A stretch of DNA of 64,000 nt from Escherichia coli (GCF_041886205.1 NZ_CP169029.1), one strand, 5' to 3'. Shown: positions 43,917 through 60,133, counted from the stretch's first letter. The notes: generated by a model from the sequence alone, not told the origin. Numbers and translations are program-made.

Positions 43917-44004
43917 GGTGAGGTGTCCGAGTGGCTGAAGGAGCACGCCTGGAAAGTGTGTATACGGCAACGTATCGGGGGTTCGAATCCCCCCCTCACC
44001 GCCA
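43917..44004 (+). tRNA. serX: tRNA-Ser (GGA anticodon)
   Basis: 88-nt GGTGAGGTGTCCGAGTGGCTGAAGG...GGTTCGAATCCCCCCCTCACCGCCA with class II long variable arm and T-loop GGTTCGAATCC. Confidence 0.95.
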
Positions 44005-56870: not shown

Positions 56871-57389
56871 ATGACGATTCTTGAAGAAATGGAAGCAGAA
56901 GCATGGCATATCCTAACAACCATCTATACGTATCAGCGGTTGATGGAAGGCCTTACTAATAGCAGTACAAGATATGAGCTTGCCAATCAGTTGGTAGCCC
57001 TCAATGCATTGTTGGAAATGTTGGTGATCCGTTTAGCGCGTCTTGCGGATAAAAGGAAAGATGTGAGATCTGTATCAATGTTTTTGAAACGCGGCTCGTA
57101 TTCTGCTTCACCAGAGGCTGTGAAATTGGCAGCTGAAAAGTTCCTTGCACTCACAGAACCAGTATTAAAGATTAGGCATGAGCAGATTGCACATATGAAG
57201 CCCGGCACACTCAGTAGCTTCGAGCCTCGAGAACTTCCAAATGAAGCTCTGAGAGCAACTGAGGCTCTAATCGATCTCATTGACATTGCCAGAGGTCACC
57301 CTCAGTCTTACACATACCGAGTTGGCTCACAGGAGCCTGCCATTAATTTGAGAGCTTCAGTAGAGACTAGCGAACTAGTTAAAATCTAA
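56871..57389 (+). CDS. Hypothetical protein, 172 aa; possible HEPN-like (R-x5-H motif)
   Basis: ATG at 56871 preceded by GGAG; visibly AT-rich; helix-like composition; RHEQIAH motif near residue 100. Confidence 0.55.
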   Translation: MTILEEMEAEAWHILTTIYTYQRLMEGLTNSSTRYELANQLVALNALLEMLVIRLARLADKRKDVRSVSMFLKRGSYSASPEAVKLAAEKFLALTEPVLKIRHEQIAHMKPGTLSSFEPRELPNEALRATEALIDLIDIARGHPQSYTYRVGSQEPAINLRASVETSELVKI

Positions 57390-57525: not shown

Positions 57526-58905
57526 TCAGTCATAAAATTTATTTTTGCCTTTTGACGTCATGAGAAGGAAATATGAAGGGTGACTCTTTATTTCTGAAGA
57601 GTGGCTTGTTATACTAAAAACCTCTTTTAGAATCGTAAAGGCTCCTGTAGCCAACGACACTGGATTTGGTGCCCCAATAAAACCTATCAATGATGGCGCA
57701 ATGTTAAGAAAAAGTTCTTTATTACTTTTCCGCTTATAGGTCTGTATTTTTTGCTCAATATCGGTCAATCCTTCATCCCATATGCGCTCGACAAAATGCT
57801 GATTTATCAGCTGCCTCTTATATGGGTCACTTTCTGCTTCTATGTCATACGCAGCTTCACGTAGCACAGAGCGGAAGGCATTAAAACTCGATTCGTAGTC
57901 AGTTCTAATTTTGTAGAGTTCACTTGGAGTAAGCCCCTCTAGAAATGGAACGTCAATAGAGAGTTTAACCCTCTGAACTTCATTCCTTTGATCCAGTTTA
58001 CGAAGAATTTCTCCATGAAATGGGCAATATGCGCCCAGGGACGCTCTGCATGAATGCGCTTGGTTAAGATCAGTAATAAGGTTTTTATAATGAAAGAGAA
58101 CTGTACGATTTTTTGCTCCCTGCACCCACCGTTCATAACTTTTTTTTCCGCTATGCTTTCCCATGACAATTTCCATAGACATGGTACCATCATCATTATC
58201 AATGGCATTATTTATATGTTGATACATATATCCATTTGTATACGAGCTTTCGCAGCCTTTAATTTTCAACATAATTTCATTCGTTAAAACATTTCTGTTT
58301 AACAACCGAATTTTATTTGTGTTGCCCAGACGTTCTATATTCTGTACGGATAGTCTACTTTCATACAGACGGGCAATATTAGGGGGGAGATATCGAAATA
58401 GGAAATTAGTATCAGAGTTATCTTCTAAAATTCCATTAGCTCTCTCCGAATCTTTAATAGAGGATTCTCTTCGTACAAAAACGATAAACTCTCCACGGAT
58501 AAGATCAAAGTTTTCTTTAGCAAACCTGATAAACCTAGCAATTTCCTTCCTGAGATGTTCAACCTTCTCTTTGCTATCGCTTTCAATAAATTTTTCAACT
58601 ACGTTTTCTGATAGATTTACCCTGTATCGTAGGCTCAATGAATATAGAACGTCATCAAGAATGACTCTGTCCATTGAAAACAAACCACTCTTATACCTTT
58701 CAATATTACGATTCCCCGCCATGTAAACATTCAGCCGGGACTCCTGTACAGAATTTGTTTGTTCGATAATGAATGAATCTATCCTTTTATTATATTCAGC
58801 TAATTCAACTAGCAATTCGTTCAATCCGATATTTTCATATTCCTGTTCTAAAAGTCGATCAACCCAAAAAAGGCTTTCTGTGAGCGCATAGAGGTTGTTG
58901 TACAT
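57526..58905 (-). CDS. Hypothetical protein, 459 aa, unknown function
   Basis: Long ORF in the most AT-rich stretch of the window; K/E/N/I-rich; no Walker A or nuclease motif recognised. Confidence 0.7.
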   Translation of the reverse strand: MYNNLYALTESLFWVDRLLEQEYENIGLNELLVELAEYNKRIDSFIIEQTNSVQESRLNVYMAGNRNIERYKSGLFSMDRVILDDVLYSLSLRYRVNLSENVVEKFIESDSKEKVEHLRKEIARFIRFAKENFDLIRGEFIVFVRRESSIKDSERANGILEDNSDTNFLFRYLPPNIARLYESRLSVQNIERLGNTNKIRLLNRNVLTNEIMLKIKGCESSYTNGYMYQHINNAIDNDDGTMSMEIVMGKHSGKKSYERWVQGAKNRTVLFHYKNLITDLNQAHSCRASLGAYCPFHGEILRKLDQRNEVQRVKLSIDVPFLEGLTPSELYKIRTDYESSFNAFRSVLREAAYDIEAESDPYKRQLINQHFVERIWDEGLTDIEQKIQTYKRKSNKELFLNIAPSLIGFIGAPNPVSLATGAFTILKEVFSITSHSSEIKSHPSYFLLMTSKGKNKFYD

Positions 58906-59917
58906 ACTAGCTCCTTTTTACCAAGCTTCAGTACTGTGTTCTCAAGATTACTCAGTGGTTTTCACACAGAGTGCACTCTCATTTTACATTTAAATGTACT
59001 TCCTAGCATCCTGCTGTTAGTGCCGGATTACAGCACTTATCAACTGTATATTTAGAAAACAAACTGCGCATAATCCTAGTGAGTTGTTATGTCCGCTCCT
59101 CGCTCAAAGCAGACCATTCGCTCAGTTAACGCATCAGTGTCGTGCTAAAAGTAGACGTGGTTAACAACAATGTGAGTTAATCAACGGAGAGCAGGTCAAC
59201 TCTAACCTGTATCAAAAAAACAAATGTGTCACAAAGATGCCGCATGCCTTAATTTGAGTATAATTGAGACGGAAGTAGACGGTTTATGGCTAAATATTGT
59301 TGATATATAGCTATTTGAAGAGTTGTAGCGCAAGTGTATAGCCCAAACTAATAACGCTACCCCTTACCTTTGACGCCTCTTATCAAAGAGCTGCGATGAT
59401 GCACAGCCCGCACGAGGCAATATTCGCACAAGAATCAGGTTCAGAAATAACCTGCTCTGGCATGGTGGGGAGAGTATCACTGATCAGGCTTTCGTTAAGA
59501 TGCGGCGGGATGAGGCCGTGTTGCGTGAGTTGCAGCAGTACAAGATCGCCCGCAGAGGGTAAGCTACAGCGCGAGATCCTAGGTTTCTATCAGGGATTCG
59601 GCAAAGCGGGCGCAGTTGTCGACCAAGGCGGTGAAATCTATAGTGGCATTATAAGGGAACGAACAATAGATCGAGTAAATCGCAGTCAGGGACAAGGATT
59701 GTAGTCTATAGAGAAGTCTCCTGTAACGGTTTTCAGGAGGCTAATTCCGACGCCTGATTTTGCAGGCGCGGAGGGAGAGGATACTGCGACCATTAATCCG
59801 CCACAAAGCATTTACGTGCATAAATCACGCAGTCAGATCCGACTCTCACTGTAGTTCTTGAACCTGATACCACATTTAGCTAATTTAGCTAACTTATCCA
59901 GTATACCAGTGGTTGCC

Positions 59918-60094
59918 ATGAATATGAATGAAGACGAGATTTATCGTCATATCCGGCAGGCACTTTCCAGTGCGCCGCGTAACCAGTACACCGTCGAGCT
60001 GCACCTGCAAATGATTAAATATGCCGACGAACTGGAACACATTACGGCAAAAGCCTTTTGCGAAGGCACCGGTCTGAATACCGATCTGCTGTAA
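59918..60094 (+). CDS. Small hypothetical ORF, 58 aa, directly upstream of hsdM
   Basis: ATG at 59918 (track used upstream TTG at 59858); MNMNEDEIYRHIRQALSSAPRNQYTVELHLQMIKYADELEHITAKAFCEGTGLNTDLL. Confidence 0.35.
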   Translation: MNMNEDEIYRHIRQALSSAPRNQYTVELHLQMIKYADELEHITAKAFCEGTGLNTDLL

Positions 60095-60133
60095 CCGACT
60101 TACGGCACATTATCGCGCAAAACGAGATATTTA

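Follow-up and report, generated by a model that had tools for sequence, protein, structure and literature searches.

What controls a type I restriction-modification operon that opens with a tandem palindromic repeat and a very short reading frame? Such an arrangement lies directly upstream of hsdM in a 64,000-nt stretch of Escherichia coli DNA (GCF_041886205.1, NZ_CP169029.1; hereafter the window). A preliminary description made from the sequence had likened it to an operator followed by a small controller or a leader peptide. The operator-controller half of that proposal was well founded, as the same locus has been characterized in EPEC E2348/69, where the small protein RptR binds the repeats and represses the genes behind them (Zhang et al., Nucleic Acids Res 2025; PMC12255303). 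The feature is therefore already known, and we add nothing new on its mechanism; the copy in the window, which is very probably a natural rptR null allele, is a minor new observation. Our main reading, to which we assign a probability of about 0.9, is that the region comprises the promoter-operator and first gene of an RptR-controlled type I RM/DarTG2 island downstream of a tRNA-Ser gene, that the rptR gene carried here lacks the helix α4, and that the island is most likely constitutive unless it is repressed in trans.

The EPEC system provides the reference for everything that follows. The island of this strain consists of the seven genes rptR-hsdM-hsdS-darT-darG-hsdR-M48 and was named 'RRDM' (PMC12255303). 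Its first gene encodes RptR, a 79-aa dimeric repressor for which a crystal structure is available (PDB 9R2Z; PMC12255303). The promoter has the -35 element TTGAAC and, 14 bp downstream, the functional -10 element AGCTAATTT; scrambling of either the -35 or the -10 abolished reporter activity, and of the -10 boxes only the 5′ one, 14 bp from the -35, was needed (PMC12255303). RptR supplied in trans repressed this promoter ~10-fold in GFP reporters, and EMSA revealed its cooperative binding to three 9-bp TTTAGCTAA direct repeats with the recognition core TAGCTA, for which TAGATA, TATCTA and TATATA were tolerated as well (PMC12255303). Two repeats gave wild-type-like binding and repression, one was insufficient, and since the repeats overlap the functional -10 box, binding of RptR results in repression (PMC12255303). 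Upon phage infection, hsdM was induced more than 15-fold (PMC12255303). The preliminary description had considered a controller unusual for a type I system, and RptR in EPEC is such a controller (PMC12255303).

Reading of the sequence from 59500 to 60400 located the 18-mer TTTAGCTAATTTAGCTAA, which is TTTAGCTAA twice in tandem, at 59875-59892, with the palindrome TTAGCTAA present inside each unit, just as initially described. The 18-mer occurs once in the 64-kb window compared with 0.04 copies expected from 100 dinucleotide-preserving shuffles, and the degenerate operator TAKMTA-N3-TAKMTA, with 0.00 copies expected, has its sole window copy here, in the form TAGCTA-N3-TAGCTA at 59877-59891. 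The 8-bp TTAGCTAA taken alone was found three times versus 0.7 expected, and three or more copies appeared in 6 of the 100 shuffles, which is not significant; hence, the evidence is the tandem arrangement of the repeats and not the palindrome. At the third repeat position the core reads TATCTA, a permitted variant, in the majority E. coli allele (SCU-104; locus L002, 8335-8343) and TATCCA in the window as well as in EPEC, which leaves a minimal two-site operator in the window. This is also the common repeat number, as two repeats were present in 244 of 248 E. coli records and three, the EPEC state, in the other 4. A search of the rest of the island, including the DNA in front of hsdR, revealed no further operators, and an Rfam scan of 58900-60300 returned nothing touching the repeat, the only matches being sub-threshold ones to isrK and c4-a1b1 on the opposite strand at 59708-59782.

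The promoter elements of EPEC are likewise preserved (Table 1). Compared with EPEC, the control region in the window has one repeat fewer and a few substitutions outside the boxes, and its distances match the EPEC figures, in which the repeats extend from 58 to 31 bp before the start and the boxes have their centres at 72 and 51. A simple sigma-70 consensus scan missed this promoter because both hexamers are weak; matches of that scan on the minus strand at ~59900-59928 were disregarded. No terminator was predicted between rptR and hsdM. The preliminary description had treated the possibility that the repeat is simply the promoter of hsdM as an objection to its own proposal. The repeats do contain the functional -10 box, but they are also the operator, so that the objection loses its force.

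Table 1. Features of the control region and the genes behind it, in positions of the 64,000-nt window.
Feature	Position	Strand	Basis and remarks
-35 hexamer TTGAAC of the island (RRDM) promoter	59858..59863	+	Same sequence as the EPEC element, same 14-bp spacing
14-bp spacer between -35 and -10	59864-59877	+	EPEC alignment
Direct repeat 1 (TTTAGCTAA), RptR site	59875..59883	+	Core TAGCTA 59877-59882; EMSA and reporter data are for the identical 9-bp EPEC unit
-10 box AGCTAATTT, functional 5′ box	59878..59886	+	Spans the junction of repeats 1 and 2; EPEC spacing kept
Direct repeat 2 (TTTAGCTAA), RptR site	59884..59892	+	Core TAGCTA 59886-59891; two adjacent repeats sufficed in EPEC
Third repeat position (CTTATCCAG), degenerate, non-consensus	59893..59901	+	Core TATCCA 59895-59900
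rptR, internally deleted, 56 codons (58 from the in-frame ATG at 59918)	59924..60094	+	α1-α3 and the C-terminal GLNTDLL left
Junction of the in-frame 69-bp deletion (between GGCAC and CGGTCTGAAT)	60068..60079	+	SCU-104 and EPEC alignments, codon table
hsdM, type I methyltransferase subunit, 812 aa, intact	60134..62572	+	TIGR00497, PF02384
hsdS, specificity subunit, 449 aa, 1-base overlap with hsdM	62572..63921	+	PF01420, PADLOC Specificity_I, strain 319 annotation
darT start, runs off the window end	63934..64000	+	First 22 codons identical to strain 319 darT

The reading frame behind the operator begins with an ATG at 59918, 26 nt after the last repeat base, and reaches its stop codon at 60092-60094 after 58 codons, 39 nt before the hsdM ATG at 60134. 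The start of the feature had been set at 59858, and this has to be corrected: at this position, automatic calling places the TTG start of a 78-codon ORF (59858-60094), which we rejected because its 'start' is in reality the -35 hexamer TTGAAC and the frame would read through the operator. PGAP, the PDB entry and the homologues all use the second ATG, at 59924 (MNEDEIY...), which leaves 56 codons. The product matched the Pfam family PF24718 HTH_73 ('HTH-like domain') with E=4e-19 and 68.7 bits against a cut-off of 27, though along profile positions 1-52 of 71 only, and phmmer against the PDB returned one entry, 9r2z_A (RptR; E=5e-31), aligned over residues 1-54 only. The small protein is not represented by any model in NCBIfam or PADLOC.

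A deletion is the reason why both matches break off at about residues 52-54. The gene has 79 codons in most locus-carrying E. coli strains (WP_001431807.1), and alignments against SCU-104 and EPEC E2348/69 showed that the missing 69 bp are flanked in the full-length gene by direct repeats of GGTCTGAA. The deletion is in frame, and the residues lost are 50-72 or, since GLN is repeated, with equal justification 53-75. In RptR, the residues predicted to contact DNA, T57-K61, belong to α4, and the dimer interface of L65, R68, L69, A72 and L74 is built from α4 and the C-terminal tail; the exchange S60G weakened both binding and repression, and the L74R protein was undetectable after purification (PMC12255303). 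In the window allele, α4 (predicted at residues 53-71) is wholly removed, and with it all predicted DNA contacts and the dimer residues L65, R68, L69 and A72. L74 is kept; hence, four of the five dimer-interface residues of α4 and the tail are lost.

Structure prediction pointed in the same direction. The AF2 model of the full-length E. coli allele reached a pLDDT of 94.4 with helices at 3-16, 19-32, 42-49 and 53-71, and 9r2z was its only significant match in the PDB (Foldseek, E<=0.001; TM 0.92). The model of the deleted allele has three helices (pLDDT 65.6, pTM 0.33), and the four-helix architecture of the 79-aa RptR is accordingly absent from the window allele. A tblastn search of the window with full-length RptR found no second copy and no displaced α4 segment. 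PGAP marks the identical allele as a pseudogene, and in strain 319 it is annotated as an 'HTH-like domain-containing protein' with the C-terminus missing. The rptR of the window is thus a member of HTH_73 by descent and not an intact one. The controller that had been suspected here has gained an identity, while the 58-codon frame as it stands is not an intact controller but an internally deleted one. Judging from the structure and from the mutants of the EPEC protein, the deleted product is probably unable to bind the operator by the known mode, a predicted loss of function. As the DNA-binding and dimerization helix is deleted, the cis-encoded controller is very probably dead in this genome.

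The deletion is not confined to this genome. Among 5,426 complete E. coli genomes, 249 RefSeq records contained the locus, of which 214 kept the 69-bp segment and 35 showed the deletion junction as an uninterrupted match. The class of haplotypes with at least 99% identity also comprised 35 records, indicating that there is no full-length version of this haplotype in the collection. A set of O157:H7 strains (644-PT8, 180-PT54, FRIK804, TW14588 and others) belongs to the carriers, as do unrelated pig ETEC, bovine and chicken isolates. An assembly artefact as the source of the deletion was rejected, since the same junction appears in 35 independent complete genomes. Furthermore, the exact 58-aa product has been called on at least 1000 public contigs. 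In the two carriers strain 319 and OkiPb01695, all six downstream genes are annotated as intact. A separate observation concerns the carrier ETEC1706 (locus L013, 11575-14012), in which hsdM is annotated as frameshifted and the rest of the island is intact; this could be a sequencing error, or restriction could have been inactivated in a strain without a working RptR. The words 'deletion', 'pseudogene' and 'O157' are absent from the main text of the RptR study and its one match to 'truncat' is unrelated, so that neither the deleted allele nor cross-regulation by an orphan paralogue appears to be discussed there (PMC12255303, main text).

As far as the window reaches, the genes following rptR are those of the EPEC island. 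The window itself holds rptR-hsdM-hsdS and the start of darT, with rptR as the first gene of the defence operon, and the remaining genes were read in near-identical strains. Strain 319, which differs from the window in 5 of 7,401 bases, has the same order rptR-hsdM-hsdS-darT-darG-hsdR-M48 as EPEC, and the full island is present in OkiPb01695, too. HsdM matched TIGR00497 with 280.8 bits (cut-off 242.75) in addition to PF02384 and PF12161, and it has the NPPF motif at 264-267. This motif includes F267, the residue mutated in the RptR study (PMC12255303). For the part of the island that lies in the window, the genes follow each other as in EPEC, and the two copies have the same -35 hexamer, functional -10 box and 9-bp TTTAGCTAA unit. 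Residues 1-49 of RptR differ at 2 positions (N2 for D2, E36 for K36), there are 6 exchanges among the 812 residues of HsdM, and the alignment from the promoter to the hsdM start contains about ten substitutions and two indels, namely the extra 9-bp repeat of EPEC and the 69-bp deletion here. What sets the window apart is the presence of two repeats instead of three, an rptR without α4, and other cargo upstream.

Beyond E. coli, a database search yielded 688 homologues, and the best 120 of these, with identities of 72-99%, come from many genera and have 79 aa in most cases. When 24 of them were aligned, the α4 segment GTEFSKMRNLT.RLK.AGL was nearly invariant. The rptR loci of Vibrio cholerae, Methylomonas, Aeromonas caviae and Nitrosomonas have 2-3 TAKMTA sites with a 9-bp period, 32-50 nt upstream of the start. 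A check for conservation of the repeat and the ORF at related loci had been proposed along with the first description, and it turned out in favour of both, as the repeat layout and the ORF are kept in EPEC, SCU-104 and these four distant genera. At the four distant loci the rptR homologue is the first gene before restriction or other defence-type genes, the downstream types being hsdR-hsdM-hsdS, an HsdM-S fusion accompanied by an SMC-like ATPase, and an SNF2 helicase together with an AAA and a DUF1156 protein. In Aeromonas caviae (locus L008, 6001-12240), the operon of the RptR homologue contains the SNF2 helicase, the AAA ATPase and the DUF1156 protein. The loci of Methylomonas (L007) and Nitrosomonas (L010) encode the HsdM-S fusion, which is fragmented in Nitrosomonas, the SMC-like ATPase and an AlbA_2/SLFN protein. 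These three operons (L007, L008, L010) with an RptR-type operator layout are not classical type I systems.

Several other explanations of the repeat and the small ORF were weighed. The geometry of a small ORF next to tandem palindromes heading an RM operon resembles that of type II C proteins, and the authors of the RptR study themselves called its role 'akin to' that of C proteins (PMC12255303). If the ORF encoded such a protein, it would be an Xre/lambda-cI-type HTH protein that binds a C-box and times restriction relative to modification. RptR has in common with C.PvuII, C.AhdI and C.Esp1396I that it is a small dimeric autoregulator heading an RM operon, with tandem palindromic sites overlapping its own promoter. 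However, we obtained no Xre or HTH_3 match in Pfam or NCBIfam, the sole family match being HTH_73, and the sole significant PDB match was 9R2Z (Foldseek E<=0.001). Moreover, the site is a 6-bp palindrome in one major groove and not a ~35-bp bipartite C-box, the gene is located upstream of the type I methyltransferase gene hsdM instead of an endonuclease gene, and for RptR repression alone was shown, not a switch from activation to repression. Family, fold, nature of the operator and gene position thus rule out a type II C protein, and we assign it next to no probability. The other half of the preliminary proposal, a leader peptide whose translation controls hsdM via attenuation or translational coupling, could appeal to the shortness of the ORF and its position 39 nt upstream of hsdM. 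Yet the protein is conserved across many genera (72-99% identity among the best 120 of 688 homologues), it has a solved fold, its homologues precede unrelated downstream genes, and no terminator or attenuator hairpin was predicted between the ORF and hsdM. A conserved family with a crystal structure makes the leader peptide exceedingly improbable. Among other defence systems, CapH/CapP of CBASS and BrxR/WYL of BREX resemble the arrangement in that a repressor starts a phage-defence operon and is relieved upon infection or damage; in contrast to these, RptR lacks both a sensor domain and a partner protease and belongs to another protein family.

Two further alternatives concern the present state of the locus in the carriers of the deletion. 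The repeat could serve here as promoter only, its TTTAGCTAA units providing the -10 box and binding no protein, with the ORF as a decaying pseudogene. The position of the -10 box inside the repeats, the pseudogene flag of PGAP and the loss of the DNA-binding helix all speak for this, and we consider it slightly better than an even bet. It describes the present state and not another origin, however, and equals the derepressed branch of our main reading. In the EPEC copy, moreover, the repeats are documented protein-binding sites. The ORF is still open and its 58-aa product is found on at least 1000 contigs, though this is no proof of selection because there is so little divergence. Alternatively, an intact paralogous RptR from elsewhere in the genome might occupy the two TAGCTA sites, so that the loss in cis would be without effect. 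A candidate is an orphan gene between thiM and rcnR that is present in O157:H7, O55:H7 and E. coli B. Its product, WP_000141034.1, has 79 aa, is 68% identical to RptR, has T57-K61, L65, R68, L69, A72 and L74 unchanged, and is preceded by a TAGCTA-N12-TATCTA of its own; in addition, both α4 and the operator hardly vary among the members of the family. By blastn, 22 of the 35 deletion carriers have a second rptR-like place, and many carriers, the O157:H7 strains, have the intact paralogue. On the other hand, no second copy was detected at blastn sensitivity in 13 of the 35, and OkiPb01695, one of these 13, has every island gene intact. The backbone of the window, furthermore, is not that of O157, as bases 1-25000 are 100% identical to wlxctx60 and 6EVA, neither of which is among the 35 carriers, and cross-binding of the paralogue to the island operator is putative. 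We therefore regard repression in trans as a tentative and rather unlikely explanation for this genome. With a more sensitive blastn search, rptR-like genes were found in ~800 E. coli genomes. As a side observation, the orphan paralogue of E. coli O157:H7 ECP19-2498 (thiM-rcnR; locus L012, 8925-9164) has an intact α4, and WP_000141034.1, seen on at least 1000 public contigs, is followed by ~1 kb of AT-rich non-coding DNA instead of defence genes.

The reading that we prefer, an RptR-controlled island that has lost its cis-encoded repressor, would work as follows. A sigma-70 promoter with its -35 at 59858-63 and its -10 within AGCTAATTT at 59878-86 would drive rptR, hsdM, hsdS, darT and the genes beyond, the whole island probably being co-transcribed. 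In strains with an intact rptR, RptR homodimers would place two α4 helices into one major groove per TAGCTA core, and cooperative binding to at least two repeats would cover the -10 box, so that the island would remain autorepressed until phage infection lifts the repression. The window retains an intact promoter and two intact operator repeats, and rptR has lost residues 50-72 to a 69-bp in-frame deletion that we attribute to slippage. Because a product without α4 would be unable to recognize the operator in the known manner, the island is most likely expressed constitutively here from an unoccupied operator, unless a paralogous RptR represses it in trans. One counterpoint has to be considered. 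The authors of the RptR study were unable to clone hsdMSR or darTG2 on pBR322 immediately downstream of the promoter in its unrepressed state (PMC12255303), which argues that unregulated expression is harmful, and yet the two carriers that we checked keep an intact island. Either the cells tolerate constitutive expression from a single copy, or the promoter is repressed by another factor; cells may cope with expression from one chromosomal copy and yet not with that from many copies.

The deletion haplotype amounts to a natural experiment. A common haplotype is devoid of exactly the DNA-binding and dimerization helix of RptR, with the promoter and the operator intact and all six downstream defence genes intact in close relatives. 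It bears on the questions whether the island can be tolerated only under repression by RptR and whether orphan paralogues cross-regulate it. We give even odds to the broader proposition that a widespread natural rptR-null haplotype keeps the RM/DarTG2 island intact without a working cis repressor, such that either always-on expression is tolerated and perhaps selected, or an orphan RptR cross-regulates. Tolerated always-on expression would run contrary to the toxicity deduced from the cloning failures (PMC12255303), and an orphan network would mean that one repressor controls the operators of several islands in trans.

Some minor observations were made in the surroundings of the locus. A tRNA-Ser(GGA) gene is located at 43917-44004, and the island downstream of it contains Cah, a GTPase gene and the RptR-controlled RM/DarTG genes, which is consistent with a tRNA-integrated genomic island. 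The interval from the GTPase gene to rptR contains two hypothetical genes, at 56871-57389 (+) and 57526-58905 (-). For the 172-aa product we obtained a weak match to HEPN_AbiU2 (E=4e-5) that stayed under the Pfam cut-off, and for the 459-aa product no family match. SCU-104 and EPEC carry other genes in this slot upstream of rptR, which is therefore variable cargo and in the window possibly another defence gene pair. Closer to the promoter, the sub-threshold Rfam matches, at 59708-59782 (- strand) and 59596-59732, are to isrK (34.7 bits, gathering score 50) and c4-a1b1 (34.1 bits, gathering score 46.7). The c4-a1b1 elements are targets of the C4 antisense RNA. The DNA adjoining these matches is 85% identical to a stretch of another E. 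coli annotated with an 'ash family protein', and the segment directly upstream of the rptR promoter looks like the remnant of a P4/CP4-type satellite prophage.
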